This document shows, piece after piece, positions 30,734 to 55,536 of a DNA stretch of 64,000 nucleotides. The notes under the pieces are model-generated. The model saw only the letters and a program-made list of their open reading frames with translations, was not told the DNA's origin and made no database searches. The position numbers and the translations under genes are program-made. The stretch's first letter is position 1, and each line of letters begins with the position of its first letter. The stretch lies in the sequence record OR770614.1. One strand, 5' to 3'. Origin of the DNA: Staphylococcus phage vB_StaM_PB50.

Positions 30734-33469
30734 TTAATTTAATTTAAATAACACATTCTTACCTTGCATTATTTCTTCATCATTAATATCAATCTTACTT
30801 TCATATCCTTTAAGTAAAATTAAATCAATATCAGAACTATAAAATTCATCATTATGACTAATTAAGAATACTTGTTCTAATCCCATTAATTCAATTTGTT
30901 TATCTATAACATCAACAAATCTTCTACGATTATTAGAGTCTAATGTTGCGTCCATCTCATCTAGGTAAAGAATATTATAATCTTGTGATACTTTATTTAA
31001 TAATGATAATGATAAACTAATATTAGTTAAAGCTGTTTCACCTTGAGAAGCTTCTTTAATGTCTTGTAATTCAGTTCCATTACCTTTATAAACATTAATA
31101 AAGAAATCCTTGTCAGTTAAATCAAAATCAATCTTGAATGAATTATTATAAGCTACTGAAAGAAGTTCATTAGTACTTACTGCAATATCTTTAAGGTAAT
31201 TAGTAATGAATATTAATGGTATAGAATCTTTTTTAGGGTTTAATGAATCGACTACTAATGAATATTTCCATAAAACTTTCTCAATATCATCAATCTTATT
31301 AATAATCGTATTTACTGTAAAGTATTTTTCTTTAGTAGATTCTAATTCATTTTTCTTCATAGTTAAATTATCTTTAATAGAATTAATCTTATTATCTGAT
31401 TGTTGATTAAGTTCATATAATCTACTTAATTTATTTAAATCTTTATCAACTTCATCAATCTTATATTGTTTATCTTTAATGTTAGATTTAATTTCATCAG
31501 ACTTCTCTGTTAAATTAATAAATTCATTAATAATGTCTAAAGTATTTTGTCCTTTATCTTTCTTTGCATTAAGTTCATTAAGATTCTCTAAGATATTATC
31601 TTTATTACTTTTAACTTCTTCAATCTGCTTTTCTAATTCAGCTTTATCTTCATTATATTGATTCATTAATTTTTGATTAGAATGATCTTCTTTAAACGCA
31701 TATCTTTTTCTTTCTAATTCTTTAGATAATTCATCTCTATTGCGTTCAGATGTTCTAATTTCATTAACATTATCTGATAATGATTTCAAGCTATTTTCTT
31801 CATTAGTAAATGAGCTATTATTAATAAATATTTCTTTAATATTATCCATAGTAATAATATCAAAACCTAAATATTCGTTTAATGAATCGACATCTTCTTT
31901 AATATAATTAAATTGATTTAATATATCGATATGATTAGAAAGAAGTTCATTATCATTTTCTAACTGATTATTTTCTTCATAAAGTTCATTAACTCTAGTT
32001 TCCAATTTATCAATTGAATCATATTCATTATCTTTAAAATCAACTACTAAAGGTACAAACACACATTCTTTATAATGTTCATGATCTTTTTGTTCTAATA
32101 TTTTAAGTAAATCTGATTTACCTTTAATTTGATTAAGACTTGTATTAAGTTCATTAGCTTCATTTAGGTTCATAGAAATTTTTTCTTTATTAGATTTAAT
32201 TTCAGTTTCAAAATCTCCATGAATATCATTATATTTAAATTTATTATCATTAACTAGACTCTTGAATTTATTAACTTTATTTAATAGATTATCTATATAT
32301 AAATTAAGCGTATTAACTTCAATGTCGTCTTTAATTTTAATATTAAAGTTATTGAAATAAGATCCTCTAGCAGCATCTATATCATTATCCAAATCAGTTA
32401 GATCATCTTTATATGATTGAAGAATTTCATCAATTTCCTGTGAAGCGTCATAATCTTCATTGAACTTAATAGCATTCATTCTAGATTCAATTTTAGATTT
32501 TCTACTAATTAAATCATCTAATTTATCTTGATTAGATTCTTTATCTTTTTTAGTTGATGTTAAATTTGTATGAACTTCATTAAGTATAGAAGATACTTTT
32601 TCTTTCTTTTCATTAGCAGATTCTAATGTATAATTATTTAAATTTTCATTAGATTCTTTTAACTTTCTTTCTTTTTCTAATTCAATTTCAAGTTCATGAA
32701 GTTCATTACTTAAATTTTCTTTTAATTGAGTTGGATGAATTTCATTATACTTTTCTTCCATAATAGAATTTAATTTAGTTTCATTAGAAGTCTTTTCTTT
32801 ATTAGCATTATCTAATTCATCCTGAATTTCATTAATTAGATTTTCTAGTACTTCTTTTTCTTTCTTAATTTCATCAAATTCTTTATATTTATCTAAATCA
32901 AATCTTAATGATTTAAGATCTTTATCAATAAGTCTTTTCTTTTCATTAGCTACTTTATAAGCTTCTAAATATTTATCAATATTAGGTACAAATTTATTAA
33001 TATATGTCTTACGATCACCAGTAGTATAATCAATAAAGTTAGAAACATTATCTCCTAATCTACCTACAGTGAAATATTCTTGAGATACGTCTAATTCTTT
33101 ATCAACTATTTCATTAAATAACTTAATACCACCATTCTCATTTAGCTCTTCACCATTCTTTTTAATAAATGATTTATTTTGAGAACTGTTTTTTCCATAA
33201 TGATGTTTAATCTCATATATGTCACTATTTTTAATATAATCGATTTCTTTAATTCCTTTTTCATCTTCAATAATATGATTTTTTCTTACATCATTAGAAC
33301 CTCTGTATGGACTTAATTGAGATATAATCGCTGATTTTCCAGATCCATTATCTCCAAGAAGCATTATCATATTATTTTTACTTTTACTGAAGTCTATTTC
33401 AATTTCTTTTAATCCTGTTCCAGCATATATACCTATAAAATTCTTTAACTTTAATCTTTTAATTTTCAT
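30734..33469 (-). CDS. SbcC/Rad50-like ATPase (recombination/repair; ABC-type head plus long coiled coil)
   Basis: Walker A MLLGDNGSGKSA at the N-terminus; about 600 aa of coiled coil; C-terminal signature EASQGETAL, Walker B ILYLDEMDATLD, and LISHNDEF. Confidence 0.75.
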   Translation of the reverse strand: MKIKRLKLKNFIGIYAGTGLKEIEIDFSKSKNNMIMLLGDNGSGKSAIISQLSPYRGSNDVRKNHIIEDEKGIKEIDYIKNSDIYEIKHHYGKNSSQNKSFIKKNGEELNENGGIKLFNEIVDKELDVSQEYFTVGRLGDNVSNFIDYTTGDRKTYINKFVPNIDKYLEAYKVANEKKRLIDKDLKSLRFDLDKYKEFDEIKKEKEVLENLINEIQDELDNANKEKTSNETKLNSIMEEKYNEIHPTQLKENLSNELHELEIELEKERKLKESNENLNNYTLESANEKKEKVSSILNEVHTNLTSTKKDKESNQDKLDDLISRKSKIESRMNAIKFNEDYDASQEIDEILQSYKDDLTDLDNDIDAARGSYFNNFNIKIKDDIEVNTLNLYIDNLLNKVNKFKSLVNDNKFKYNDIHGDFETEIKSNKEKISMNLNEANELNTSLNQIKGKSDLLKILEQKDHEHYKECVFVPLVVDFKDNEYDSIDKLETRVNELYEENNQLENDNELLSNHIDILNQFNYIKEDVDSLNEYLGFDIITMDNIKEIFINNSSFTNEENSLKSLSDNVNEIRTSERNRDELSKELERKRYAFKEDHSNQKLMNQYNEDKAELEKQIEEVKSNKDNILENLNELNAKKDKGQNTLDIINEFINLTEKSDEIKSNIKDKQYKIDEVDKDLNKLSRLYELNQQSDNKINSIKDNLTMKKNELESTKEKYFTVNTIINKIDDIEKVLWKYSLVVDSLNPKKDSIPLIFITNYLKDIAVSTNELLSVAYNNSFKIDFDLTDKDFFINVYKGNGTELQDIKEASQGETALTNISLSLSLLNKVSQDYNILYLDEMDATLDSNNRRRFVDVIDKQIELMGLEQVFLISHNDEFYSSDIDLILLKGYESKIDINDEEIMQGKNVLFKLN

Positions 33470-33526
33470 TATCCAAAGTCATCTCCTAGCCGAATTATAA
33501 TTTTCCGTTACTATAGATTTTTAATT

Positions 33527-34387
33527 TTATTTAAAATTATCCCTTACTTTATATTTAGCTATAATCTTTTCATCATTAATTTTCTCAAATGTATCTGTTT
33601 CATCTATATAACTGAATAATTCTATATATTCATCTTTAATATCTTCTTCTTTTATTTTTAAATCTTCTTTGCTAAATTCTAAAAAATATTTTTCATTTAA
33701 ATAAAAATTTATATTAAGATGGTTAGTTATTTTATTCAATAATATTAGTATTTCACTATTTATATTTAGAAGAACTTTATACATCATATGATGACCTAGA
33801 TTTTTTTTCTTTAAAGCATTATATAATTGAATTGGATCTTCTTCAGGTATAAATTTATTTATTTCAAATACCAATGTATTATTTTCTCCTTTAAACTCAA
33901 ATACATTTCCACATATTTTATTAAATAATTTTTTGTCTAATTCAGTTCCAAGATTTGAAATATTCAATTCTAAACTAAGATCAATACCATTTTTAAGTAC
34001 ATAAATATCATTATCGTCTTTATCTTTATATTTACCTTTTTCATGAAATTTAACATCTGAATTTAAATTTATACTAAAATTATTTAATATTTTTGAATTG
34101 TCTATACTATAAGATAAAAAAGGTAGAAATGACATCATATCTAGATTAACTCCTTTAATATGTCTTGGTTCCTCTTTAAAAATATTAAAAAGCATAAAAG
34201 GGGATTTATCAGGGTTTCTATTTTCTTTATTTGAGAATTGTAAATTTGATAATATATGACTTAAAGTATTAATTTCTGGAGTTATAAAATTCTTTATACC
34301 TATATCCGATAAATCTTCAATTTCATTTTCAACTGTGTACATTTTGTCTTCTAATTTATATAGATAATAATCTTTATTTTTATCCAA
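33527..34387 (-). CDS. member of the paralogous KYLVKxNFK-tail family (unknown function)
   Basis: N-terminus MDKNKDYYLYKLEDKMYTVENEIEDL; C-terminus FEKINDEKIIAKYKVRDNFK. Confidence 0.6.
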   Translation of the reverse strand: MDKNKDYYLYKLEDKMYTVENEIEDLSDIGIKNFITPEINTLSHILSNLQFSNKENRNPDKSPFMLFNIFKEEPRHIKGVNLDMMSFLPFLSYSIDNSKILNNFSINLNSDVKFHEKGKYKDKDDNDIYVLKNGIDLSLELNISNLGTELDKKLFNKICGNVFEFKGENNTLVFEINKFIPEEDPIQLYNALKKKNLGHHMMYKVLLNINSEILILLNKITNHLNINFYLNEKYFLEFSKEDLKIKEEDIKDEYIELFSYIDETDTFEKINDEKIIAKYKVRDNFK

Positions 34388-34401
34388 CGAAAAATCCTCC
34401 T

Positions 34402-35133
34402 TTATTTAAAATTTTCTCTTACTAAATACTTCTCAATAGTTTCTTTATCAGTTATTTCCTTAAATATTCTACCAGAATCAAAATTTTTAAGAAATTCAAT
34501 TTCTTTATTATCGAATTTACTATAGTCTTCTAAATTTTTAGTTCCAATTATAGATGCAAAAGAAACTTCTTTTATTAAGAATTCTAAATCAAAATGTTTA
34601 GACATTGCATGTAAAACATTGATAATTGCACCATTCATATCAGATAAAGTAAACACCATATCATTATTATTTTTAAGATTTTCATTTTCAAGATCTGAAA
34701 TGAAAATATCATAATCACTTATTACCGGTAAATACTCCATTTTTATTGAATTATTTTTGTCTAAGATATCTCCAGATACAGATCTAAAGAATGGATTATA
34801 AACAGTAGGATAAACTCCAGTATTAAATACTAAAGTTAAGTAGCTGGTATCATTTTTATTTATTTCAAATCTTCCAGCAATATCGATATAATCAATTGAT
34901 TCTTCATTTTTACTTTTTATTGAATAATATAATCTAGGAAATATATTATGAAAATCTATAGTACAAGATTTTTTATCTTTTTCATAGCTGGACCATTCAT
35001 AGGAATCAGTTTTAACTTGTAAACTAGCAAGCAAATAATTGAAAAATATTTCATTATTTGTTTGCTCTGAATTTATATTATCTATTTCAATTAATCTTTC
35101 ACTTAGTTTTGTTACAAAATATTTTTTACCCAT
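34402..35133 (-). CDS. member of the KYLVKxNFK-tail family
   Basis: N-terminus MGKKYFVTKLSERLIEIDNI; C-terminus IFKEITDKETIEKYLVRENFK. Confidence 0.6.
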   Translation of the reverse strand: MGKKYFVTKLSERLIEIDNINSEQTNNEIFFNYLLASLQVKTDSYEWSSYEKDKKSCTIDFHNIFPRLYYSIKSKNEESIDYIDIAGRFEINKNDTSYLTLVFNTGVYPTVYNPFFRSVSGDILDKNNSIKMEYLPVISDYDIFISDLENENLKNNNDMVFTLSDMNGAIINVLHAMSKHFDLEFLIKEVSFASIIGTKNLEDYSKFDNKEIEFLKNFDSGRIFKEITDKETIEKYLVRENFK

Positions 35134-35149
35134 ATTAAATTTCTCCTTT

Positions 35150-35932
35150 TTATTTAAAATTATTTTTCACTAAATATTTTTTAATAATCTTTTCATCTTT
35201 AATCTCTTCAAATACTCCAGATATTTTATACTCGTCAAATAAATTATAGTATTCATCATCTATATCAACATTATCTCTTTTATCATTCTCTGGTATGTGC
35301 GAGAAACAACCATCTGATACAAAAAATTCTATATCAAAATGATCTCTAATTTGTGATAAAATTTCCAATATAGAACTATTTACTTCAACTAATATTTGGT
35401 ATAAATCTTTATTATTTCTAAAATTATTCTCTGTACCACTATTAAAATCTGATATTAAATCTTCCATGCTATTTATATGAAATCTAAAAGGCACTTTTAA
35501 AGAATTGGATTCATCTAATATATTGCCAATAACGCTATTAAAAATTATTGAATTTATACCTGAAGAGTATGGATTTTCAATTCTAACTTTTAAATAGTTC
35601 TTATTTTCTATTGATTCGTTGAAAATAATATCAAAATCAATAATAAGTATATTCGTTGTCTTTTTATTATTAACATTATATTTGATAACTGGAAAAATAT
35701 ATCCAGCCGATATAATCCCTGACCATAAATTCTCTCCATTATCATCTTTATCAACAATCTCTTCAGAAGATATAGTTATTTCTTCATTACTTTTTACTTG
35801 TAAATTAGAAAGTAATTGAGGTAGATATAAATAATCTTCACTTATATTATATTTGTATAAATTAGTAACTTCAAATAAATCATCTGTCATTTTACTTAAA
35901 AAATATTTTTTATGACTTTTATTTATACTCAT
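35150..35932 (-). CDS. member of the KYLVKxNFK-tail family
   Basis: N-terminus ...HKKYFLSKMTDDLFEVTN; C-terminus VFEEIKDEKIIKKYLVKNNFK. Confidence 0.6.
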   Translation of the reverse strand: MSINKSHKKYFLSKMTDDLFEVTNLYKYNISEDYLYLPQLLSNLQVKSNEEITISSEEIVDKDDNGENLWSGIISAGYIFPVIKYNVNNKKTTNILIIDFDIIFNESIENKNYLKVRIENPYSSGINSIIFNSVIGNILDESNSLKVPFRFHINSMEDLISDFNSGTENNFRNNKDLYQILVEVNSSILEILSQIRDHFDIEFFVSDGCFSHIPENDKRDNVDIDDEYYNLFDEYKISGVFEEIKDEKIIKKYLVKNNFK

Positions 35933-36741
35933 TATGAAAATCCTTTCTTGACTTTAAAATTTTTAATATCTTTTTCATCTGTTAATTCTTTAAATAAATC
36001 ATTTTCATCACTTTCTATTAGATGTAATAAATTAATTAAACTGCCACCCTTACTGGAGAAACTAATATAAAATTCTATATCATCTTTATACATATATTTA
36101 ATCTCATAAAGAGACATTAATACACTAAGATTATTCTGATATAATATTATAAAGAATAAATCCTTAAAATCTTCTATAAATTTAATAATAGGATTTTTCT
36201 CAAATGCCGATATTGAAAAACTTAAATCCATAAATGATTCATTATTATATTTGATCTCGTATAAACTCTTTTCAAATAATTCAATATTTACAAGAGATCT
36301 CATTTTTTCATTTATTCCTTCATTAACTAAATTATTTTCATTTACTAAACCATTAGTAATTGTATTGAAATATTCTTTATATAATGAATTATCAAAATGA
36401 AAATCTAATTTAAATTCTCCAGTTTCAATTTTATCCATTCTACCAGTATTGAAATTAATATGAAAATTAGTATTAAATCTTTTAAAAGCATCATTTTTAT
36501 TATGTTTGTCTATAAAATAAATATCATTATCAATTTCTTTATAATGAAAATTCATATAATCTTCTTCTTTAGAAATATTATTTATGAAAGATTTAGCGTA
36601 TCCTTTACTACTTAAAATATTATTAATATCCATAGTGGTTAATACATATGCAATATATTCATATCGGTTAAGATAATTTCTATCAATTTCAATTAATTCA
36701 TCTCTTTCTTTATCTATAAAATATTTTGTATTATTTTTCAT
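35932..36741 (-). CDS. member of the KYLVKxNFK-tail family (start moved to the internal ATG at 36741)
   Basis: N-terminus MKNNTKYFIDKERDELIEIDRNY; C-terminus LFKELTDEKDIKNFKVKKGFS. The ORF-track start at 36789 would overlap the upstream gene by 47 nt. Confidence 0.55.
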   Translation of the reverse strand: MKNNTKYFIDKERDELIEIDRNYLNRYEYIAYVLTTMDINNILSSKGYAKSFINNISKEEDYMNFHYKEIDNDIYFIDKHNKNDAFKRFNTNFHINFNTGRMDKIETGEFKLDFHFDNSLYKEYFNTITNGLVNENNLVNEGINEKMRSLVNIELFEKSLYEIKYNNESFMDLSFSISAFEKNPIIKFIEDFKDLFFIILYQNNLSVLMSLYEIKYMYKDDIEFYISFSSKGGSLINLLHLIESDENDLFKELTDEKDIKNFKVKKGFS

Positions 36742-36742
36742 A

Positions 36743-37522
36743 TTAGGAAAATCCTTTCTTGACTTTAAATTTTTTAATCTCTTTCTCATCAGTTATTTCT
36801 CTAAAATATGCATCAGCGTCAAAATCATTTAAACTGATATACTTATCATATTCTTTTTCAAAACTAAAACCTTTTTCTTTTACCTTTTCCTTAACGCTAA
36901 AATCCCAATCCGGTGCAATAAGAAATTCAATATCTGAATGGTCTTGTATCTGATCTAGTAATTCAAAGATTAATTTATTTGTATCATTAAATATTTTATA
37001 TAAATCATCTTTGAGTTCTACAGCTCTTTTTCCTTTTTGTATATGACTTTTATAATATTTTAAAAATCGAGATATAATTTCTTCATTAAAGCTATGATGT
37101 AAATATAGTTCGCCATCATCATCAAATATACCAGATCTTTTACTAAATAATCTTTTACCTATCTTACTATTATTATATACAGGGAAAGCTCTAATCTTAA
37201 TATAGTTATCGTCTTCTTCTTTTAAACTAAAACGTATTGTAGCGTAAAAGAGAAGTTCCATTTTATTTTTTTTACCCTTATATTTATATTTTACGGTAGG
37301 GAAAGCATCAAAAAATAATCTAACACCAAATAAGCCATCATTATCATCATATTCTTCATGAGTTATGAAAAATCTTTCATTATACTTTAACTGCATTTCA
37401 GCGAATAATTTGCTTAAAACTTTCCATTTAAAGTCAAAATAGTTTGTTTCATTTTCATTGAAACTTAATTCCATAAATTCTTCTCTCAATTTACTAATAT
37501 AATATTTATTAATTTTCTCCAT
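36743..37522 (-). CDS. member of the KYLVKxNFK-tail family
   Basis: N-terminus MEKINKYYISKLREEFMELSFN; C-terminus YFREITDEKEIKKFKVKKGFS. Confidence 0.6.
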   Translation of the reverse strand: MEKINKYYISKLREEFMELSFNENETNYFDFKWKVLSKLFAEMQLKYNERFFITHEEYDDNDGLFGVRLFFDAFPTVKYKYKGKKNKMELLFYATIRFSLKEEDDNYIKIRAFPVYNNSKIGKRLFSKRSGIFDDDGELYLHHSFNEEIISRFLKYYKSHIQKGKRAVELKDDLYKIFNDTNKLIFELLDQIQDHSDIEFLIAPDWDFSVKEKVKEKGFSFEKEYDKYISLNDFDADAYFREITDEKEIKKFKVKKGFS

Positions 37523-37547
37523 TTATTTAACTCCTTTTATTATAATA

Positions 37548-37579
37548 ATCCCAATACCTAAATTAATGGGTATTGGGAT
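37548..37579. terminator. hairpin ATCCCAATACCTAAATTAATGGGTATTGGGAT (same family as 4033)
   Basis: Inverted repeat with one G.U pair. It lies between two minus-strand genes and is immediately followed by the conserved AT motif. Confidence 0.5.
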
Positions 37580-37583
37580 AACA

Positions 37584-37605
37584 TTTTTATAATATATATT
37601 TATTC
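37584..37605 (-). promoter_or_regulatory. conserved AT-rich motif (ACATTTTTATAATATATATTTATT), candidate promoter for 36743-37522
   Basis: Lies 62-81 nt upstream of the start at 37522. Confidence 0.35.
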
Positions 37606-38006
37606 TAATCTTCAGAATTGAGTGACACTTGAACATTTTCCATTTCTTCACGTTGTTCTTTAAGTCTATCAAGAACTTCTTTTTCTTCTTTATTTTGAGT
37701 TAATTCTGGTTCAATTAATAATTCTTTTTCTTTCATGTCTTCTAATATACTTAAACCTTTTTGAACCTCTGGCGATTCATTAGAAGGATTAAATCTATTA
37801 TGTTTATTATCATAATAATTTAATTTAACTAGATCTGAATTAGTTTCAATAACCACTTCAGCTTCTATGAATAAAATATCATTCGGATCAGTTACACGTT
37901 TTCTATATATTAAAGCTTTAGTATAAGAATCCTTTTTAAAACCATAATCTCTTAATAGCTGTTTAATATTTTCTTTATTACTATTTAATCTATATTCTGA
38001 TAACAT
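37605..38006 (-). CDS. hypothetical protein
   Basis: 133-aa ORF; not a family member. Confidence 0.45.
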   Translation of the reverse strand: MLSEYRLNSNKENIKQLLRDYGFKKDSYTKALIYRKRVTDPNDILFIEAEVVIETNSDLVKLNYYDNKHNRFNPSNESPEVQKGLSILEDMKEKELLIEPELTQNKEEKEVLDRLKEQREEMENVQVSLNSED

Positions 38007-38168
38007 TATAAATCACTCCTTAATTATTTTTACTAAATTCATGAACTTCATTAAGATGCTCATGATCTTGGTAGCTAAATTTAAACTCGTATAGTTTCTT
38101 TTCAAATCTTTTTCTAGTTAATAATTCGTATAATCTTTTTAACATATCTAATACATCTCCTTATTAAT

Positions 38169-38579
38169 TTAAAATGAAGCATCTATTACTAAATAAAAAT
38201 TATGCTTATTGCTTTCTAAATAGTATCTATTTTGAAATATTTCTAACATTAATTTGTAGTATTTTGTTAGATCATTATCAAAATTATCTTCTTTTAATTC
38301 TTTTTTCATTAATTCTTTTAAATTTGATTCTGAAATTACTTGAACATCATAACCTTCATCATCTTTAAAAATAGTTGAATTTTCACTTAAAACTTTAAAT
38401 AATTCATGTGGTTTATATAATTCTAATTCAAATAAGTGATTTTTCTTATTTATATATCTTTTATTTTTAATATACCAATCTAAATTTCTTTGATGACTTT
38501 TATTTATTCCATATATACTAAGTTCCATACCCATAAATAATACATCTCCTATATAATAAATACCCATAATATATTGCAT
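38169..38579 (-). CDS. hypothetical protein
   Basis: 136-aa ORF. Confidence 0.45.
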   Translation of the reverse strand: MQYIMGIYYIGDVLFMGMELSIYGINKSHQRNLDWYIKNKRYINKKNHLFELELYKPHELFKVLSENSTIFKDDEGYDVQVISESNLKELMKKELKEDNFDNDLTKYYKLMLEIFQNRYYLESNKHNFYLVIDASF

Positions 38580-38602
38580 TAATATATTATGGGCAAAATA
38601 AT

Positions 38603-39388
38603 CTAAAATTCTGCTTTTTGATAAATATTTCCAAATTCATCTTTAACTATTTCATCATTACCTTCAATATCTTCAAAGATAAGATCTCTAGTCATAGTAA
38701 ATAATTCTGGATATTCATCTTCAAGCTCATCTTCTTCAATGATATTCATTTCATTATCAGCAATTACTAGTTCATATTCATTTGGAGTATCACCTAATAC
38801 AAAGAATTGCAATGTGCCTTTATATACTTTTAAAATAGAAGCTAAGTCTTGATATTTAAGTTCATTGACCTCTTTTTGTAATTCCTCTCTTTTTTCAATT
38901 TCTTTTTCATCTTCATCTATATCTTTATTTAGATTTTCTAAAGTTTGATCTAATTTATCTTTCAAATCTTCTTCATCTTCAGCAGTATCTTCTTCATTTT
39001 CTGTCATGCTGTTTAATATATCTTTATTAGACATATTATTAAGCTGACTAAGTACATTTTTAGCAAGCACTTTATAGTTATCTTCAGATTCATCATCTTC
39101 AGCCATTTTCTGAGCTTTCATAGTTAAGTCAATAATATCTTTTTTAACATTTTTCATTTGCATAATAGTGTCTTTAATTTCTTTTTCTACACTAATAATA
39201 TTAGCTTCCATATTAGATACAAATGTATGTTTAGGATATTTCAGATTCTTAGTTAAATCTCTAATTCTTTCTTCTAATTGAATTTCTTTACGTTCCATTT
39301 TAGATTTAAAACCAACTAGCATTTTATATTCTTCCATCATATCATTAATTTGTGAAATTAAATCAATTCCGTTATTTTCATTAGACAT
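38603..39388 (-). CDS. hypothetical acidic coiled-coil protein
   Basis: 261-aa ORF with Glu/Asp-rich segments. Confidence 0.5.
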   Translation of the reverse strand: MSNENNGIDLISQINDMMEEYKMLVGFKSKMERKEIQLEERIRDLTKNLKYPKHTFVSNMEANIISVEKEIKDTIMQMKNVKKDIIDLTMKAQKMAEDDESEDNYKVLAKNVLSQLNNMSNKDILNSMTENEEDTAEDEEDLKDKLDQTLENLNKDIDEDEKEIEKREELQKEVNELKYQDLASILKVYKGTLQFFVLGDTPNEYELVIADNEMNIIEEDELEDEYPELFTMTRDLIFEDIEGNDEIVKDEFGNIYQKAEF

Positions 39389-39434
39389 TTAGTTAATCAC
39401 TTCTTTCATATATTATAAAAGTAAGTTAATTAAA

Positions 39435-40121
39435 TTACCTAAAGTTTTTATTTACTAAATAGTTTTTAATTTCTTTCTCATCTTTAATTTCAATAAATTT
39501 CTTACTGAAATTTAATATATTATAATCTTCTAATGTACCATCTTTATACTTCGAGAAATTTTCTAGTTTTATTTTATTCTTATTTTCTTCAAATTCTTCT
39601 ATAATTTCTTCATTAATTACATAAAAATCAATATCATCATTTTCAATTTCTTTTAATACCGCTTCAAACATTTCACTAAAGAAAATCTGATCTTCTTCTT
39701 TATAATCATATTCAAATTTAGGATAATTTTCATATTTAAATAATTTCCGGTTATAAAATAAGTTTCTTACTTTTGTGAAATTTCCAACACTTTCAAATTT
39801 ATTAAGAGTTGCAGCTGTAGGTGTAAGTTTAATATTAATTATAGCTTCATGATTAAGCTTCAACCGAATAGTCAATTCTATGTGTTTTATTCTATACATA
39901 ATGTTATTGTGATTAATTACAATGAAACTTCCAGTCATTCCTTGATGTCTCAATATATAGTCGTCTTTTGTATATTTTTCATGCTTCACTAAGTATAGAT
40001 TATCATCCACATAGTTAATAAATGAAAAAGATCTAATATATTTTTCTATACCATCTTTTGCTTCTATATATTTTCCATTATCTATATTTTTGTATAATTT
40101 AAAATCAATCATATTATTCAA
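39435..40121 (-). CDS. member of the KYLVKxNFK-tail family
   Basis: N-terminus MNNMIDFKLYKNIDNGKYIEAKDG; C-terminus FIEIKDEKEIKNYLVNKNFR. Confidence 0.6.
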   Translation of the reverse strand: MNNMIDFKLYKNIDNGKYIEAKDGIEKYIRSFSFINYVDDNLYLVKHEKYTKDDYILRHQGMTGSFIVINHNNIMYRIKHIELTIRLKLNHEAIINIKLTPTAATLNKFESVGNFTKVRNLFYNRKLFKYENYPKFEYDYKEEDQIFFSEMFEAVLKEIENDDIDFYVINEEIIEEFEENKNKIKLENFSKYKDGTLEDYNILNFSKKFIEIKDEKEIKNYLVNKNFR

Positions 40122-40749
40122 AACCTTTCTTGACTAAGTAATTTTTAATTTCCTTTTCATCCGTTACTTCTTTAAATAGTTCATCTATAATATTTAAATT
40201 ATAGATTTCTTTTATATCCTCTTTACTTATTTTGTAATCATGAATATTGTCTTCGTTATTTAATGAAAAGACATTAAATGCAGAACCATTTTTATTAAAT
40301 ATATCTCTAGTCAAGTATTCTTTAGCTCTGTCTAGTAAAGTTTTTCCTTCAGTATATATTTCTGTATCATTAAAATAAAATTCAATTTCACCTTCTCTAG
40401 ATACAAAAGGTCCTATTTCACAGTGAACTTCTTTTTTTGAAAACGCTGGAATATCTAATACAAAACTAAATTCATATTGACCATCATTTTTATCTACGAA
40501 AAGATCAAATTCATTTACATAAAAAAGATTATTCATATCATAACCGAATCTTAGAATTAGACCATCCATAGAATTTATCCAAAGACGAACATTTTTAACA
40601 TCATAACCAGTACAGCCTGGATGTTTGAAAAATTGATCAAAAGATATATCAAATAATTCTTTTCTAGAAAGACTCTTTTTATCAATGAAACTATATTCTA
40701 AAATATCAGATACATATAATGATTCATTCATTTTAATTACCTCTTTCAT
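40114..40749 (-). CDS. member of the KYLVKxNFK-tail family
   Basis: C-terminus LFKEVTDEKEIKNYLVKKGFE; its start overlaps the stop of the upstream gene. Confidence 0.6.
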   Translation of the reverse strand: MKEVIKMNESLYVSDILEYSFIDKKSLSRKELFDISFDQFFKHPGCTGYDVKNVRLWINSMDGLILRFGYDMNNLFYVNEFDLFVDKNDGQYEFSFVLDIPAFSKKEVHCEIGPFVSREGEIEFYFNDTEIYTEGKTLLDRAKEYLTRDIFNKNGSAFNVFSLNNEDNIHDYKISKEDIKEIYNLNIIDELFKEVTDEKEIKNYLVKKGFE

Positions 40750-41363
40750 TATTTAAAATTTTTTTCTACTAAATATTTTTTAATTTCTTTTTCATCTTCT
40801 AGTTTTCTAAAATATACATGAGGTTCAAATATATCAATACCATTTATAAAGATTTTAGTATTTCCATCAACATTTTCTTCTTTAAGCATTTTGTCCAACA
40901 AATTAGACAATGTATCTAAATTATTTTCGTATTGATTATAACCCATAAGATCTTTTTCATAAAAATCTTTTACCATTGTTATAGCAAGACTATTTGAAAT
41001 AGTATCATCTTCTAAAAATTGTATCTGAGTATCTCTATTAATATAGGTTTCTAATTGTAATGTTACTTCATTATCTTTAATTTTTACATATGAAAATTCT
41101 AAGGCTTCTACTGGAAGATTCTTTCTAATCCCATTATATATATTACTGTAATATATATTTTCACTATCAATTAAATCAAAACGTAAATTTCTATTATAAT
41201 AAAGATCATCATTTAAACTAGGGTAATAATCTAAATTTCTTTCCATTAACTTTTTATAATAGAATTTATTTATTTTATCATTAATATCATTTTCATCTTT
41301 ACCAATTATAAAAAGCTCATTAATATCCTTATTGTAATAAAATTCATTCTCTTTTAAAATCAT
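40749..41363 (-). CDS. member of the KYLVKxNFK-tail family
   Basis: N-terminus MILKENEFYYNKDINELFIIGKDE; C-terminus YFRKLEDEKEIKKYLVEKNFK. Confidence 0.6.
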   Translation of the reverse strand: MILKENEFYYNKDINELFIIGKDENDINDKINKFYYKKLMERNLDYYPSLNDDLYYNRNLRFDLIDSENIYYSNIYNGIRKNLPVEALEFSYVKIKDNEVTLQLETYINRDTQIQFLEDDTISNSLAITMVKDFYEKDLMGYNQYENNLDTLSNLLDKMLKEENVDGNTKIFINGIDIFEPHVYFRKLEDEKEIKKYLVEKNFK

Positions 41364-41427
41364 ATCTTTTCCACTCTCCTAATTAAATTAATATAGAGAT
41401 AATGAATCATATTAATTCATTATCTCA

Positions 41428-41450
41428 TTTTTATAATATATATTTAACAC
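41428..41450 (-). promoter_or_regulatory. conserved AT-rich motif (TTTTTATAATATATATTTAACAC), candidate promoter for 40749-41363
   Basis: Lies 65-87 nt upstream of the start. Confidence 0.35.
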
Positions 41451-41455
41451 ATATT

Positions 41456-42133
41456 TCATCTAAATCCTTCTTTAACTAAATAATTCTTGAATTCTTTATC
41501 AGTAGCAACTCTAAATAAGTTTTCATTGTGTAAATTGATATCTTTTAAACTATAATATTTTCCATCAATTAAAAACTGTATATCTTCATATTTATTTAAT
41601 TCAGTTATTATTTTTAAAAATTCTTTTTTAAACTTTTCAATTGATAAGTGAAATTTAGGACACCTTTTACCATCAAAATCTGATAAGCTTACTAATTCTT
41701 TTGTTTTAACCTTAAGTGTATTCTTTTTGTTATTCATACCTAAATTTTTTCTTTTCATCATATTAAATTCATATAGTATTTCATCTTCTAAATAACTATT
41801 ATCTTTCTCTTTAGATATAATTTTTAATTCAGTAGAAGTAAATGATAAACCGGCAAAATTAGTTGTATGGTCATTCATATTCTGATAATAACTTATTTTA
41901 ATATCTTTATAATCATTAAAACCTCTTAGTTTTAATTTACAATCAATTTTAAATGATATTATATTTTCAAAATCAGGATTAGCATTATTCGTTAATAATC
42001 TCATCATGTTAACAACATTTACTTTCTCAATATATTCTCTATCATTATTATATTTATCTTTATCTATTCTCGTAAAATAATTATTTTCTATATCTTTGGT
42101 CGCTTTATATAGATCAAAATCATAATTTTCCAT
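41456..42133 (-). CDS. member of the KYLVKxNFK-tail family
   Basis: N-terminus MENYDFDLYKATKDIENNYFTRIDKD; C-terminus LFRVATDKEFKNYLVKEGFR. Confidence 0.6.
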   Translation of the reverse strand: MENYDFDLYKATKDIENNYFTRIDKDKYNNDREYIEKVNVVNMMRLLTNNANPDFENIISFKIDCKLKLRGFNDYKDIKISYYQNMNDHTTNFAGLSFTSTELKIISKEKDNSYLEDEILYEFNMMKRKNLGMNNKKNTLKVKTKELVSLSDFDGKRCPKFHLSIEKFKKEFLKIITELNKYEDIQFLIDGKYYSLKDINLHNENLFRVATDKEFKNYLVKEGFR

Positions 42134-42135
42134 TA

Positions 42136-42321
42136 TTATTCTTCTCCTTTTAAGATTCTTTCCATTTCTTCTTTAGAAACTTTCTCTCCTATAATTGGAC
42201 CTTTTATTTTTTTCTTGTCTTTATTTTTCTCTCTGTATAATTCTGCATCAATTTCCCATTTTTCTTGTAAAGTCAATTGTTTACTTTCATTTTTTCTAAT
42301 TTCTTTTCTCATATTTATCAA
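42136..42321 (-). CDS. small charged hypothetical protein (61 aa)
   Basis: K/E-rich ORF that fills the gap between family members. Confidence 0.35.
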   Translation of the reverse strand: MINMRKEIRKNESKQLTLQEKWEIDAELYREKNKDKKKIKGPIIGEKVSKEEMERILKGEE

Positions 42322-42326
42322 TCCCC

Positions 42327-42818
42327 TTATCTAAAATGATTTCTAATTTTAAAATCTTTTACTTCTTTACAATCTTCTGAGATTATTTCAAATATATCTT
42401 CATTATCAAAATTGAATTTTTCTAATGGAATATTATAATGTGCCATATTTATATCTATCGCATAACATAATCTTTTATAAAATAAATAATAAAGATCAAT
42501 TGAAGAGTCTGATATGACAAGATTTTGGTTTGTTAAATCTATATTTTTAGGTATAAAAGGAATACTATTAAGATCCCAAGAAATGTTTGTAGTTAAATGA
42601 AGATTAATAAAACCGTAAAGTAAGAAAAACTCCAATTTTATAATTCCTACGTCTTCATCATATAAATCAATCTTTTTACCATAAGATCTATAAAAAGACG
42701 AATTCTCTTTTTTAAATTTATTTCCAAATACATAATAAAATGCATCATCTTTTCTATGAATATCATTAACTTCATATATTTCGCCATTTACTTTATTTTC
42801 GTAATATATCATATCCAC
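42327..42818 (-). CDS. member of the KYLVKxNFK-tail family (short subtype; C-terminus KDFKIRNHFR)
   Basis: N-terminus MDMIYYENKVNGEIYEVNDIHRKDDAFYYVFGNKFKKE; recent duplicate of 43546-44028. Confidence 0.6.
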   Translation of the reverse strand: MDMIYYENKVNGEIYEVNDIHRKDDAFYYVFGNKFKKENSSFYRSYGKKIDLYDEDVGIIKLEFFLLYGFINLHLTTNISWDLNSIPFIPKNIDLTNQNLVISDSSIDLYYLFYKRLCYAIDINMAHYNIPLEKFNFDNEDIFEIISEDCKEVKDFKIRNHFR

Positions 42819-42828
42819 TTACACTTCC

Positions 42829-43530
42829 TTATTTAAATTCTTCTTTAATTAAGTAATTTTTAATTTCTTCCTCATCAGTAATTTCTTCAGCAATAAATTC
42901 CAAATTCCATCTTAGATAATCCATAAAATACATATACGAATTGTCGATCTTAATTCTAAGGTCCTTTAATATATAATATATCAATTCATCTAGAGAATCA
43001 TAAACGTCATTATTCTTATCAGACAAATAATCTTGTTTGAAACTAACTTTAAAATGTACTTCATTTTTATCCATTGTACAAGAAGATATTTTATATTTAT
43101 CACTTTTATATTTATCTAGCATACGAATTATTTTCTTAGCCTTTTTTGTATTTAAAACAATTTGAAATATATTTTCATAAATTCCATCATTATCTGTATT
43201 AGAATCAGAGAAACAAACAATTGAAGATGAAATATTTCTTTCTTTATTTTCATTACTCTTAATTATTATATCTTCGTCTACTCCAATTAAATTTTTAAAA
43301 TTTATAATAATATCTGAATGTGTATAAAAATGAAAATTCAGTTGTTTATTAATTAAATAAGAGTTTCCATTGGTTGTAACGGGTTGGTCTTCATAATTAT
43401 AATATGGGTAAAAATTACTTTTTATCTGTTTCATGACTTTATAAAGAAATCTACCATTATTAATTTCATCTTTAGATAAAATAAATTTATTACCATTTTC
43501 TAGATTTTTATACAATTTAATATTTTCCAT
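42829..43530 (-). CDS. member of the KYLVKxNFK-tail family
   Basis: N-terminus MENIKLYKNLENGNKFILSKDE; C-terminus IAEEITDEEEIKNYLIKEEFK. Confidence 0.6.
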   Translation of the reverse strand: MENIKLYKNLENGNKFILSKDEINNGRFLYKVMKQIKSNFYPYYNYEDQPVTTNGNSYLINKQLNFHFYTHSDIIINFKNLIGVDEDIIIKSNENKERNISSSIVCFSDSNTDNDGIYENIFQIVLNTKKAKKIIRMLDKYKSDKYKISSCTMDKNEVHFKVSFKQDYLSDKNNDVYDSLDELIYYILKDLRIKIDNSYMYFMDYLRWNLEFIAEEITDEEEIKNYLIKEEFK

Positions 43531-43545
43531 TTAAAATTTCTCCTT

Positions 43546-44028
43546 TTATTTAAAAAGATTTCTAATTTTAAAATCTTTTACTTCTTTACAATCTTCTGAT
43601 AATATTTTAAATATGTCTTCATTATCAAAATTAAATTCTTTTAATAATATATTATAATTTAATAAAGGTATATCTATTGCATTACACATTCTTTTATATA
43701 ATATATAGTAAAGATCTTCTGAAGAATCAGATGAGACAAGATTTTGATTCTTTAAATCTACTAATTTAGGTGCAAAAGGATTATTATTATCATATTTCAT
43801 ATGTGTAACTAAAAATAATCTAGATGAGTCATAATTTAATTGGAAGTTTAATTCTTTATGTCCTTTATCTTTATCAAATAAATCAATTTTTTTACCCACT
43901 GATTCATATAATTCCATTCTTTCTTTTTTAAATTCATTACCAAACACATAACAAAAAGCATCATCTTTTCTATGAATATCATTAACTTCGTATATTTCAC
44001 CATTTACTTTATTTTTGTAATATATCAT
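43546..44028 (-). CDS. member of the KYLVKxNFK-tail family (short subtype; C-terminus KDFKIRNLFK)
   Basis: N-terminal 35 aa near-identical to 42327-42818 at both DNA and protein level. Confidence 0.6.
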   Translation of the reverse strand: MIYYKNKVNGEIYEVNDIHRKDDAFCYVFGNEFKKERMELYESVGKKIDLFDKDKGHKELNFQLNYDSSRLFLVTHMKYDNNNPFAPKLVDLKNQNLVSSDSSEDLYYILYKRMCNAIDIPLLNYNILLKEFNFDNEDIFKILSEDCKEVKDFKIRNLFK

Positions 44029-44045
44029 TATCTATTTCAACTCCA

Positions 44046-44666
44046 TTATTTAAAATTTTCTTTAATTAAATATTTCTTAATCTTATCAATATCTTTTTCT
44101 TCATTATTTTCTAATTCATTTATATTCCTACCATTTAATAACAAATCATAACCTTTATCATTAAATTTTCTTTCTAAATCGTATAAGTATCTAATTACAA
44201 TATCAGAATATTTTAAATGAAAATCATTTTTATCATAATTAAAAATAGAAATTGTTACATTATTGATTTCTTTATCATCTACTATTAAATTTATATAATC
44301 AACATCTGATATAAGTTTTTTATATCTATCACTTTCTATTTGTTTTTCTTCATTATCATAAAACAATCTTATGCCACTTGTATATTCATTTAACTCATTT
44401 TCTTGTTTTTCAGAAAAAATATCTATTGACAAACTAAATTGAAATTTTATATTTTCACATATCAATTCAAGATTATCAAGAGAAATATTTATATCTAATC
44501 TCTCTAGACCTAAATTTAGAAAATTATCTTCCTTGATACGATCTACATCAATATGCAACATTCCTATCAAGTCTGTAATATTTCCTTTAATTTTATCTTT
44601 ATAGATTTGCATTAATCTATCATCCATTTTAAAATACCTATAATCATTAATATTCAAAATAATCAC
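44046..44666 (-). CDS. member of the KYLVKxNFK-tail family
   Basis: N-terminus MIILNINDYRYFKMDDRLMQIYKD; C-terminus DKIKKYLIKENFK. RBS AAAGGAGAAG. Confidence 0.6.
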   Translation of the reverse strand: MIILNINDYRYFKMDDRLMQIYKDKIKGNITDLIGMLHIDVDRIKEDNFLNLGLERLDINISLDNLELICENIKFQFSLSIDIFSEKQENELNEYTSGIRLFYDNEEKQIESDRYKKLISDVDYINLIVDDKEINNVTISIFNYDKNDFHLKYSDIVIRYLYDLERKFNDKGYDLLLNGRNINELENNEEKDIDKIKKYLIKENFK

Positions 44667-44693
44667 TTCTCCTTTTATATTTTAATACACTTC

Positions 44694-44716
44694 TATTTTA
44701 TAATATATATTTAAAT
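44694..44716 (-). promoter_or_regulatory. conserved AT-rich motif (TTTTATAATATATATTTAAATAAG), candidate promoter for 44046-44666
   Basis: Directly downstream of the beta-prime N gene terminator hairpin. Confidence 0.35.
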
Positions 44717-44727
44717 AAGTATTTTGT

Positions 44728-44775
44728 ATAAGAGCAATATAATAAGAGTAACGATCTATATTAGACCGTTACTCT
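44728..44775 (-). terminator. rho-independent terminator of the beta-prime N gene (AGAGTAACGGTC..GATCGTTACTCT plus U-rich tract on the minus strand)
   Basis: 12-bp stem followed by TTATTATATT on the minus strand. Confidence 0.55.
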
Positions 44776-44786
44776 GAATTTTTAAA

Positions 44787-49350: not shown

Positions 49351-49854
49351 CTACATAAAATTCTTTTTAGTTTCTATTTTCATAAATTCTGTTTTATCTA
49401 TCTCTTCAAAAATAGTATAAATATCATTTAAGTAAATATAAAAATAATCATCTTTGTCATTATATTGAAAATTTAAACGAAGATAATTATTAGAATTATC
49501 TTCGTCAATAGATGGACATTCAATTAAACCATGTTTATAAGGCATGTTAGAATCATACTCTATACTATTTTTATTTATATTTATTTCTTTATGAATATCC
49601 AAACTAATAGGAACATATAATTCTGACGCTTTTAGTATTTCTCCATCTTTTTTATTGTATGCTTTACATCTTATAAAAGGTAATATTTCATCACTTAAAA
49701 TATTATATAACATCATAAAAATATCATCATTTTCATCAACTTTAAATACAATATCTTTTTTCATATCTCTATAATATTCAAAGACAGATGATAATTTCTT
49801 TTCAGTTTCAAATAGTTCTTGAAACTTTTTAGGCTTAAATAAAAAATATCTCAT
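49351..49854 (-). CDS. hypothetical protein (C-terminus loosely resembles the family tail: KIETKKNFM)
   Basis: 167-aa ORF. Confidence 0.4.
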   Translation of the reverse strand: MRYFLFKPKKFQELFETEKKLSSVFEYYRDMKKDIVFKVDENDDIFMMLYNILSDEILPFIRCKAYNKKDGEILKASELYVPISLDIHKEININKNSIEYDSNMPYKHGLIECPSIDEDNSNNYLRLNFQYNDKDDYFYIYLNDIYTIFEEIDKTEFMKIETKKNFM

Positions 49855-52120: not shown

Positions 52121-52399
52121 TTGTCTAATAATTTATCTTCAATCGAAAAACAAATATTAGAAGCTACTGATGAAGCTCTTATTCAAGAGCAAAACATCAT
52201 GCGTTTAGATGAACGTACTAAACGTAAACGTAGATTAAATCAAGCAGCATTAATTGCAGCTAAAGAAGCTCAAGATCCTATTTACTTTAAATACCAAAAA
52301 GCTTCTAGAGCACGTAGAAAATGGCGTGACTTAATTCGTCAAAAATACGCTACTAAAGCTAAATTAAAATTAGCTGAGTATGATCACAACAAAAAATAA
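52121..52399 (+). CDS. small basic hypothetical protein (92 aa)
   Basis: K/R-rich (KRKRRLNQAALIAAKEAQ...RARRKWRDLIRQKY); followed by the conserved hairpin. Confidence 0.45.
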   Translation: MSNNLSSIEKQILEATDEALIQEQNIMRLDERTKRKRRLNQAALIAAKEAQDPIYFKYQKASRARRKWRDLIRQKYATKAKLKLAEYDHNKK

Positions 52400-52408
52400 T
52401 TTATATTT

Positions 52409-52443
52409 ATCCCAATACCTATTGTATTAATAGGTATTGGGAT
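52409..52443. terminator. bidirectional hairpin ATCCCAATACCTATTGTATTAATAGGTATTGGGAT
   Basis: Same stem as 4033, 16143 and 37548, between convergent genes. Confidence 0.6.
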
Positions 52444-52448
52444 TATTT

Positions 52449-53105
52449 TTATTTAAAATTTTTATTTATTTTATATTTTTTAACTTCACTTTCAGAAAGC
52501 TCTTCAATTATATTATTCTTTCTGCTGTTAAATACATTTTCAATCTCTTGTAAATAAAATATATTACTGTCTTCTACTTTTCCATTTTTAAATAAAGATA
52601 GATTGAATGAATATATATCTCCTAAAATGAATTTAATTTTGTTTAAAATAGAATAAACTAATTTTTCAAAATCATCTTTATCTATATGAATTTTGACATT
52701 ATTATCCGAATATTCTATATGAAACTCTTCATTTAAATCTATTAAAGCTACTTTAGTTGCATATAGATCATAATATACACCTAAATCTAATTTCAATCCA
52801 ATATCAGAAAAATTCTCAACAAATAATATAGAAATAAAATTATTATTATCAATATCACTTGAAAATACTAATGACATGGGGTTTTTATCTAAACTATTTG
52901 AAATAAAATCTTTGATTAAAATTTTAAAATATAAGAAAAAGCTGATTTTATCATTTAATTTAAACACATTATTTTTTCTTAAATTTACATCTTTAGAAAA
53001 ATTGAAATTCAAATAATTAATTTTTAATCTATAATAAAAAGAATCATCATTGAATCTCAATAAATTTGTATAGTGGTTTATTAATTCATCTTTAAATTTC
53101 TTCAT
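52449..53105 (-). CDS. outlying member of the KYLVKxNFK-tail family
   Basis: C-terminus LSESEVKKYKINKNFK; N-terminus MKKFKDELINHYTNLLRFNDD. Confidence 0.5.
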   Translation of the reverse strand: MKKFKDELINHYTNLLRFNDDSFYYRLKINYLNFNFSKDVNLRKNNVFKLNDKISFFLYFKILIKDFISNSLDKNPMSLVFSSDIDNNNFISILFVENFSDIGLKLDLGVYYDLYATKVALIDLNEEFHIEYSDNNVKIHIDKDDFEKLVYSILNKIKFILGDIYSFNLSLFKNGKVEDSNIFYLQEIENVFNSRKNNIIEELSESEVKKYKINKNFK

Positions 53106-53131: not shown

Positions 53132-53410
53132 TTAATTTCTAATATATGAAATTATAAATGAAATTACAAATAAAATACTCAATACAAGAATTACTGTCAA
53201 TCCAAATGTTACTATAAAGTCTAAGACAGGACTACCCAAATGGATATCTGGAAAGTTAAATATTGATTCGTTAGGAATATTATCGTCTGGTGTATGTTGT
53301 GGCATATTTGCAGGGTTAGTTGGACTGGTGGGATTAGCTGGATGTAAAGGATTGTTTGGATTAGCTGGATTAGCTGGATTTAAGGGACTAGTGGGATTAG
53401 ATGGGTTCAT
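53132..53410 (-). CDS. tail-anchored membrane protein with N-terminal NPxNP proline/asparagine repeats
   Basis: MNPSNPTSPLNPANPANPNNPLHPANPTSPTNPAN ... C-terminal TM helix VLDFIVTFGLTVILVLSILFVISFII. Confidence 0.5.
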   Translation of the reverse strand: MNPSNPTSPLNPANPANPNNPLHPANPTSPTNPANMPQHTPDDNIPNESIFNFPDIHLGSPVLDFIVTFGLTVILVLSILFVISFIISYIRN

Positions 53411-55511: not shown

Positions 55512-55536
55512 ATTTTTATAATATATATTTAAATCA
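55512..55536 (-). promoter_or_regulatory. conserved AT-rich motif (CATTTTTATAATATATATTTAAATCA), candidate promoter for 54197-55441
   Basis: Lies 72-95 nt upstream of the start at 55441. Confidence 0.35.

Follow-up and report, generated by a model that had tools for sequence, protein, structure and literature searches.

What are the products of a long tandem array of phage genes that have hardly anything in common except their termini? This question is raised by a locus of Staphylococcus phage vB_StaM_PB50 (sequence record OR770614.1), of which one stretch of 64,000 nucleotides (nt), below called the window, was analysed. A sequence-only reading of it had listed 14 open reading frames (ORFs) on the minus strand, coding for proteins of 160–286 amino acids (aa). 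All of them were found at the positions collected in Table 1, together with the stop/start overlaps and the sequences resembling ribosome-binding sites described for them. They represent 14 copies of one family, 13 of which form an array of three sub-operons, while one is an outlier. The family is real, undescribed and restricted to one clade of Staphylococcus jumbo phages. Its products are tentatively considered here as early host-takeover or counter-defence binding proteins, in which a terminal frame would carry a variable recognition centre.

The source phage is an AR9/PBS1-like Staphylococcus jumbo phage belonging to the clade with two multisubunit RNA polymerases (RNAPs). The base composition of the window is 22–28% G+C, and its genes lie mostly on the minus strand. 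GenBank matches to the region 33000–45000 were found in nine phages only, every one a Staphylococcus jumbo phage: Machias, which is the closest (93.8% identity across 73% of the region), S6, PALS_2, MarsHill, Madawaska, DC4, SA1, LY01 and AH12. The family amounts to about 10 kb of tandem genes, or about 4% of the genome. The array is flanked on one side by the intron-split gene for the N-terminal part of the beta' subunit of the virion RNAP (vRNAP) and on the other by the gene of an SbcC-like ATPase.

The Conserved C-Terminal Tail

The tail of the 14 window genes has the consensus F.EI.DEKEIKKYLVK.NFK. Its penultimate Phe is invariant in 112/112 members from nine phage loci, and group-weighted conservation over these members reaches 92% at K-10, 78% at Y-8, 74% at I-11, 73% at K-13, 72% at E-14 and 70% at D-15. 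A hidden Markov model (HMM) of the last 24 residues was searched among the 344 window ORFs of at least 40 aa, each member being included in its own model; 14 members were found at E-values of 3e-13 to 5e-7, and the next ORF scored 0.17. The model thus separates the 14 genes from all other ORFs of the window, which bears out the conserved tail first noticed by eye.

In a held-out test the whole orthogroup of a member was removed, and the tail model was built from relatives in other phages. Eleven of the 14 members were recovered at E ≤ 1.5e-5, and the genes at 42327 (E 6e-4), 52449 (E 0.028) and 43546 (E 0.076) all outrank every non-family ORF. The gene at 44046–44666 fails the held-out test. 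Its C-terminus exactly fits the ten-residue motif [IVF][KE][KND][YF][LK][VI][KRN][KEN]xF, which has 532 occurrences in all of IMG/VR, and because of this rare motif the gene is kept as the weakest member.

The codons of the tail vary synonymously (GTA/GTC/GTG/GTT, AAA/AAG, TAT/TAC, GGA/GGT), and its amino acid substitutions are conservative (V/I, Y/F, K/R). The tail is also kept at 33527, 41456 and 52449, where a hairpin or a non-family gene follows instead of a family gene. Because of the protein-level codon pattern, and because the tail persists without a following family gene, the chance reading of a non-coding repeat is excluded. The earlier reading had named such a translated DNA repeat as one of the findings that would overturn it; the codon pattern points instead to selection for the protein.

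Distribution of the Family

Scans of all 14 members against Pfam-A, NCBIfam, PHROGs v4 and PADLOC-DB gave no significant match. The best Pfam matches (E ≥ 0.012) are far under the curated cut-offs, and the weak matches are scattered over unrelated families. PDB sequence profiles gave no match either, whether the query was the whole family or one of two body groups. Together with the structure searches described below, these null results agree with the earlier description of the family as undescribed. The array genes are annotated as "hypothetical protein" in every record of the relatives, and the papers on MarsHill/Machias and on DC4 make no mention of a paralogous family.

A profile of the 14 members compared with 1.84 billion cluster representatives gave 17 matches, all with the tail. 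Every match with a named source comes from a Staphylococcus jumbo phage, and the rest are closely related metagenome or European Nucleotide Archive sequences. A word-seeded search of 5.8 billion clusters gave eight matches, and a body-only profile of one sequence group (g5, 41456–42133) found among these 5.8 billion clusters only proteins of this clade. In tblastn with the tail consensus against 50,697 phage genomes, the matches were confined to nine phages of the clade. A protein-pattern scan of IMG/VR, with matches checked against one body type, found no member. A degenerate DNA pattern comprising the tail and the stop codon was without a match in both IMG/VR and the genomes of 185,579 GTDB species; its single match in JGI metagenomes was a contig of 5.2 kb with seven tandem members in yet another combination. 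The search for the C-terminal motif in other phage genomes, proposed as a check by the earlier reading, thus delimits a clade-restricted family. The loci of AR9 and Listeria phage LPJP1 that are syntenic to the array (vRNAP beta' gene to SbcC-like gene) contain no family member. In Machias, where the scan covered positions 1–50,000 and the 31-kb locus, no member was found in 1–50,000.

Protein Bodies and the Shared Frame

The bodies of the proteins differ much more than their tails. With the tails removed, BLAST links the genes at 33527, 34402, 35150 and 36743 (E 1e-9 to 1e-16) and the pair 42327/43546 (E 3e-57); profile–profile comparison adds 35932 to the first set. The bodies of the window and of eight related loci fall into 15 sequence groups, between which profile–profile links exist for g0–g12 (98%), g0–g2 (78%) and g5–g14 (92%) and for no others, unrelated neighbouring genes used as controls giving 0–3%. 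The statement that the middle regions cannot be aligned is therefore mostly right, apart from these few linked groups. Since only g0–g12, g0–g2 and g5–g14 are linked, common ancestry of all the bodies is unproven by sequence.

Two further short motifs accompany the tail. The N-terminal one (aromatic-K...hydrophobic-x-hydrophobic; ..KYF..K...L.E[IV]) is present in 70/112 members vs 13/156 background ORFs. The D[ILV].[FI] strand motif, located 25–85 residues before the end, is present in 35/112 members vs 7/156 background ORFs. Both regular expressions were composed after inspection of the data. From the two enriched motifs and the tail it follows that, in most members, an unalignable centre is framed by two or three short elements held in common. 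The penultimate Phe is the sole invariant column of the alignment, and the alignments contain no conserved polar residues outside the tail. The proteins are mostly acidic (isoelectric point of most members, 4.6–6.3); no member has a transmembrane segment, and the proteins are soluble.

The AlphaFold model of 35150–35932 is confident (predicted local distance difference test, pLDDT, 82.5; predicted template modelling score, pTM, 0.85). Its N-terminal part comprises a hairpin (9–22), a helix and a five-stranded antiparallel beta-meander (52–119). The C-terminal part comprises helices, including a long one at 175–198, and a strand at 201–205 (DIEFFV), and the tail is modelled as a strand (241–244, FEEI) followed by a helix (247–259). 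The model of 42829–43530 is poor overall (pLDDT 52.9). Its termini are confident (72–88) and have the same hairpin and the same strand-plus-helix tail as 35150–35932; its centre is of low confidence, so this model cannot show one fold for all the bodies. The question whether the tail forms a helix or a strand, posed by the earlier reading, is thus answered in both models by a beta-strand plus a helix, and the tail is predicted to be a structured element rather than a disordered tag. The joint model confidence of the N-terminal hairpin and the tail suggests that they pack into one module. No significant structural neighbour of the 35150–35932 model was found among PDB chains or BFVD viral models, and the fold of the family is possibly new.

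Predicted Early Promoters of the Array

The early promoter recognized by the injected virion RNAP of AR9 has been mapped experimentally as AAATATATATTAT-N6-G(+1) (PMC5312081). The window contains 7 exact copies of AAATATATATTAT-N6-G vs 0.23 expected. All of them are on the minus strand, which is the coding strand, and have G at the predicted +1; 6/7 are intergenic, 47–77 nt before the first ATG of the next ORF. All 14 family genes belong to units headed by such exact AR9-type promoters. In the case of the promoter at 44700, the first ATG of the next ORF (44627) follows after 73 nt and the listed GTG start (44666) after about 34 nt. From this promoter identity with AR9, the family genes are probably expressed early, their products being made in the first minutes after DNA injection.

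In each of the eight relatives, as in the JGI metagenome contig, the same early promoters precede family sub-arrays. The 13-mer at the head of the array is exact before the first family gene in 7/8 relatives and in the contig; A replaces the +1 G in five relatives and in the contig. LY01 has no array-head promoter, and its upstream family genes are also missing.

Two of the promoters inside the array coincide with hairpins (Table 1). Since the +1 G lies at the hairpin or 3 nt before it, early mRNAs from the promoters at 41433 and 37589 would start with a 5' stem-loop. The hairpin at 41396–41426 could serve both as the terminator of sub-array 1 and as the 5' stem-loop of sub-array 2, and the one at 37548–37579 could likewise end the unit upstream of it. 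The transcript of sub-array 3 probably continues into the SbcC-like gene. The outlying member at 52449–53105 is followed by a hairpin at 52409–52443.

Three further exact promoters are located outside the array on the minus strand (18362, 49278 and 61490). Those at 18362, 49278 and 55518 lie 47–77 nt upstream of the genes 17110–18315, 47902–49212 and 54197–55441, respectively, and the copy at 61490 is situated within ORF 59864–61561. A palindrome ATCCCAATACC...GGTATTGGGAT occurs three times (4033–4064, 37548–37579 and 52409–52443; six arm matches vs 0.5 expected), and two of the three copies flank family genes.

Gene Turnover and Rate of Evolution

The related loci of eight phages carry 8–15 family copies each. 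Only two of the 15 body groups are universal to the nine phages, three groups common elsewhere are absent from the window, and four are found in three phages or fewer. Compared with Machias, two whole-gene replacements have occurred (34467–35922 and 40799–41378), with flanking identity of 94–99%. The segment 41379–44112 is 77–79% identical to Machias and is nearer to S6-type phages (87–89%). The outlier at 52449–53105 is absent from Machias and SA1, where its flanks are contiguous. The identity blocks shared with Machias end in tails; such boundaries are expected, because any tail aligns with any other tail, and recombination at the tails was not counted as evidence for this reason.

Pairwise Nei–Gojobori estimates of non-synonymous and synonymous divergence (dN and dS, with omega = dN/dS) were compared between the family and 24 neighbouring genes. 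The median omega of the family is 0.505 vs 0.26 for the neighbours (p = 2e-4), and at matched low dS it is 0.505 vs 0.19 (p = 3e-4). Omega never exceeds 1; regionally it peaks at 0.81, a value reached in the central part of the pair 42327/43546. In this pair, the first 35 codons have dN 0.035 and dS 0.38, and the centre has dN 0.47 and dS of about 0.58–0.60; the termini are constrained (omega 0.09) and the centre is nearly neutral (omega 0.6–0.8). Both paralogs are found in six other phages. Because of this and of the dS and dN values, the duplication is considered old, with the N-terminus under purifying selection. Rapid diversification of the family, as suggested by the sequence-only reading, thus stands in so far as the genes evolve faster than their neighbours and are gained, lost and replaced. 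Ongoing duplication, which had been deduced from the near-identical first 35 codons, is not supported in view of the dS of 0.38 there and the presence of both paralogs in six other phages.

The dS of family genes to their best orthologs is 0.05–0.53, and below 0.3 in 7/12 members with usable pairs; for the flanking SbcC and RNAP beta' genes it is about 0.6. Since the family values are below those of the flanking core genes, the array has moved between phage lineages at a later time than the genes around it. The family thus has three properties of a strain-variable viral multigene family evolving in conflict, namely tandem paralogs, variation of content among close relatives and faster evolution than neighbouring genes.

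Proposed Function and Alternatives

The AR9-type early promoters favour an early role in host takeover or counter-defence, and binding proteins with such a role are the reading adopted here with reserve. According to this proposal, the proteins would be made within the first minutes of infection. The terminal frame would supply a common fold consisting of an N-terminal hairpin and a C-terminal beta-strand with an amphipathic helix, to which many members would add a long helix and, after it, a D[IL].F strand. The conserved charged surface of the frame (D, E, K, E, K) may represent a shared docking or self-association site, and the variable centre would recognise differing targets of the host or of competitors. 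The array would diversify via duplication, divergence and whole-gene cassette exchange among related phages. Binding rather than catalysis is suggested by the lack of an enzyme signature and by the penultimate Phe being the only invariant column.

Several points weigh against host takeover or counter-defence by proteins of this design. A single common fold is not proven, most bodies being without detectable homology and one body type being confidently modelled. The gene-wide dN/dS is below 1, and relaxed constraint fits the rates as well as diversifying selection does. The RNA-seq study of SA1 classes 259 genes, and its text states no class for the family genes ORF180–184 and ORF189–192 (PMC9414953). 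The SbcC-like gene, which lies downstream and is probably transcribed together with them, is listed as "middle" in the same study (PMC9414953).

The alternative that survives best, although it is judged unlikely, is that the proteins are adaptors. The terminal module, chiefly its C-terminal strand and helix, would dock on one shared machine (host protease, host RNAP or phage polymerase), and the centres would bring substrates or targets to it. This would account for a tail much more conserved than the rest of the protein over 15 body types, with many charged and probably surface-exposed residues among the conserved ones (K-10, K-13, E-14, D-15), and situated at the extreme C-terminus with the invariant Phe one residue from the end. 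The conservation of charged tail residues leans towards docking of the frame on a shared partner, beyond a role in holding the fold. However, the tail is predicted to be structured in both models (pLDDT 74–88) and not a free peptide. To our knowledge, it also bears no resemblance to docking peptides described at other C-termini, for example the ..LAA degron of the ssrA type, the QL[SD]LF motif that binds the clamp or the ..DDDIPF tip of the single-stranded DNA-binding protein SSB.

A further-reaching version of this idea, which is less probable still, is that the two-ended frame constitutes a new fold and acts as a universal plug joining many recognition centres to one host or phage machine (protease, polymerase). 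If this were true, the family would be the bacterial-virus counterpart of the poxvirus ankyrin/F-box adaptors, and each paralog would neutralise or redirect a different protein or defence system of the staphylococcal host within minutes of the start of infection.

It is rather improbable that the proteins serve phage–phage competition, superinfection exclusion or action on other mobile elements. Early expression, high turnover and cassette exchange fit such conflicts as well as they fit conflict with the host, but nothing specific speaks in their favour, and no member has a membrane segment, unlike many exclusion proteins.

Packaging into the virion, with the shared tail or N-terminal motif acting as a packaging signal in the manner of the T4 capsid-targeting sequence, is very improbable. 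It is the injected or internal virion protein of the sequence-only reading, suggested by a short terminal peptide common to several otherwise dissimilar proteins. Jumbo phages do package many proteins, and in Machias the neighbouring SbcC-like gene is annotated as "virion associated". The exact early promoter on every unit argues against packaging, since late genes account for 41/43 virion protein genes of AR9, the remaining two being expressed continuously (PMC5312081). The virion proteome of DC4 (15 proteins, a shallow data set) includes none of the 18 array genes UFVDC4_00025–00042, nor the outlier UFVDC4_00016. In addition, the conserved signal is C-terminal and structured, and not an N-terminal propeptide.

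Finally, a DNA-level feature (recombination site, translational coupling or regulatory element) or an AT-rich chance product, for which the 22% G+C of the genome, its strongly biased codons and the Machias identity blocks breaking in tails and gene starts (34466/35923, 40798/41379) could be cited, is largely refuted by the codon pattern, the peptide being preserved through synonymous and conservative substitutions, by ORFs intact in nine phages and one metagenome contig, by tails retained without a downstream family gene and by a tail HMM that matches nothing else in the window.

Comparison with Known Systems and Significance

Early gene products of AR9 are without predicted function in 76% of cases (PMC5312081). 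The early genes of AR9/PBS1 resemble the family in having an identical promoter, including the +1 G, which is intergenic, on the coding strand and at the head of genes of unknown function. AR9 differs in having no family member at the syntenic locus. It is not known to us to carry a paralog array of this kind.

Among large DNA viruses, tandem and strain-variable paralog arrays similar to the present one are formed by the poxvirus ankyrin/PRANC (F-box-like) proteins and by the multigene families MGF360/505 of African swine fever virus (ASFV). In the poxvirus proteins, too, a variable part that binds the target is joined to a short C-terminal motif that is conserved. Unlike the family, these are proteins of eukaryotic viruses with known folds and a known partner (Skp1/cullin in the case of PRANC). 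Pfam and structure searches revealed no sequence or structural relationship between the family and the poxvirus or ASFV systems.

The internal proteins IPI–III of T4 are likewise dissimilar small proteins with one short conserved terminal peptide. In T4, however, the signal is located at the N-terminus and removed by the prohead protease, and the proteins, products of late genes, are packaged. The staphylococcal family has early promoters; its strongest signal is C-terminal and predicted to be structured, and a hairpin is predicted for its N-terminal motif.

Dense clusters of small early genes of unknown function with strong early promoters and terminators also make up the host-takeover modules of other large lytic phages of Gram-positive hosts, namely SPO1 (genes 37–60) and Kayvirus and Twort-like phages (early genes of the terminal repeats). 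These clusters consist mostly of unrelated genes, whereas here a single family with a common frame has expanded. Early paralog arrays in large phages are already known; this family and its possibly new fold are undescribed.

Staphylococcus jumbo phages are considered for therapy, and about 80% of their genes are without an assigned function. No sequenced member of the clade is without the family, whose genes are predicted to be among the first expressed; in a region that is otherwise syntenic, they vary the most. Genes that determine the range of strains open to takeover by a phage would be expected to have such properties. The approximately 15 body types represent a defined set for anti-defence or host-shutoff screening in S. 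aureus, and the compact conserved module, with its possibly new fold, is a candidate for a shared interaction handle. If the family were dispensable, it would be a clear example of extensive, neutral gene expansion in a phage genome.

Gene Content of the Locus and Neighbouring Elements

Table 1. Family genes, other genes and predicted regulatory elements of the array and its surroundings. Members are assigned to sequence groups of their bodies (g); E-values are those of the held-out tail test unless stated otherwise.
Feature	Position	Strand	Length (aa)	Remarks
Family member, g13	44046..44666	-	206	Tail ..KIKKYLIKENFK; weakest member; ortholog in Machias only
Family member, g1, short subtype	43546..44028	-	160	Tail ..CKEVKDFKIRNLFK; paralog of 42327–42818 (body E 3e-57)
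Family member, g3	42829..43530	-	233	E 2.3e-7
Family member, g1, short subtype	42327..42818	-	163	E 6e-4
Family member, g5	41456..42133	-	225	E 6.9e-7; final gene of sub-array 1
Family member, g4	40749..41363	-	204	E 1.4e-9; Machias has two other members replacing the body
Family member, g6	40114..40749	-	211	E 8.3e-12; start overlaps the stop of the upstream gene
Family member, g11	39435..40121	-	228	E 1.2e-8; group in 3/9 phages only
Family member, g0	36743..37522	-	259	E 3.6e-13
Family member, g2	35932..36789	-	285	Length from first ATG; E 2.1e-10; true start likely a downstream Met (MKNNTKYF...), as in the matched protein P0011
Family member, g0	35150..35932	-	260	AlphaFold model
Family member, g0	34402..35133	-	243	E 1.1e-6
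Family member, g12	33527..34387	-	286	E 1.5e-5; final array gene, directly upstream of the SbcC-like ATPase gene
Outlying family member, g9	52449..53105	-	218	E 0.028, rank 14; last gene of another predicted early unit
Interleaved non-family gene	37605..38006	-		No tail, no family HMM match
Interleaved non-family gene	38169..38579	-		No tail, no family HMM match
Interleaved non-family gene	38603..39388	-		No tail, no family HMM match
Possible degenerate relative	49351..49854	-	167	Ends ..FEEIDKTEFMKIETKKNFM; hhalign to the family C-terminal module E 0.0085, probability 4.7%
Predicted early promoter, AAATATATATTAT-N6-G	44700..44712	-		+1 G 44693; heads sub-array 1 (44666 to 41456)
Predicted early promoter	41433..41445	-		+1 G 41426; heads sub-array 2 (41363 to 38603)
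Predicted early promoter	37589..37601	-		+1 G 37582; heads sub-array 3 (37522 to 33527)
Predicted early promoter	55518..55530	-		Heads the unit with the outlier 52449–53105 as last gene
Terminator-like hairpin	44745..44775	-		Upstream of the array; 14-bp stem, then T-rich tail; closes the vRNAP beta' unit
Hairpin at predicted start	41396..41426	-		Terminator-like on both strands; first base is the +1 G of promoter 41433
Hairpin	37548..37579	-		Scores as bidirectional terminator; begins 3 nt past the +1 G (37582) of promoter 37589

The three genes interleaved within the array (37605–39388) have no Pfam or PHROGs match. A homology of 38603–39388 to a gene of LPJP1 was considered and rejected (BLASTP E 16). 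The gene at 49351–49854 was missed by both the tail HMM and the family HMM; its similarity is weak, and it is a possible fifteenth member.

Near the outlying member, the sole plus-strand gene of the region (52121–52399) encodes a Lys/Arg-rich protein of 92 aa that matches PHROG 26909, "virion structural protein" (E 1.6e-20). The DC4 gene UFVDC4_00019, matched to it by size and syntenic position, has a product detected in virions by liquid chromatography–mass spectrometry. A small minus-strand ORF at 53132–53410, adjoining the outlier, has N-terminal (N)P(A/T)NP repeats and a C-terminal hydrophobic segment. SA1 is without both this ORF and the outlying family member. In LY01 (L007), a gene annotated as transposase is present at 28573–29721 within the split DNA polymerase region; from this phage, the larger part of the upstream half of the array has been lost.

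Compact elements split the N-terminal gene of vRNAP beta' three times and the catalytic gene of the DNA polymerase once. These ORF-less elements of about 130–200 nt are located on the minus strand at 44817–45619 and 50828–50982. Their copies have 85–100% identity over repeat segments of 43–88 nt, and one more segment of 34 nt has 76%. Because the 5' end of the element carries GGTCGCTGCTTAA, both upstream exon ORFs end in ...MVAA*. In an Rfam search with an E-value threshold, which covered the beta' copies, the polymerase copy being outside the searched region, the beta' elements gave sub-threshold matches to group I introns (32.6, 27.8 and 21.9 bits vs the gathering score of 50; E 2.6e-6 to 4e-3). 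The Rfam gathering score was reached nowhere in the whole window. In the annotation of Machias, both split genes (beta' and polymerase) are given as joined exons.

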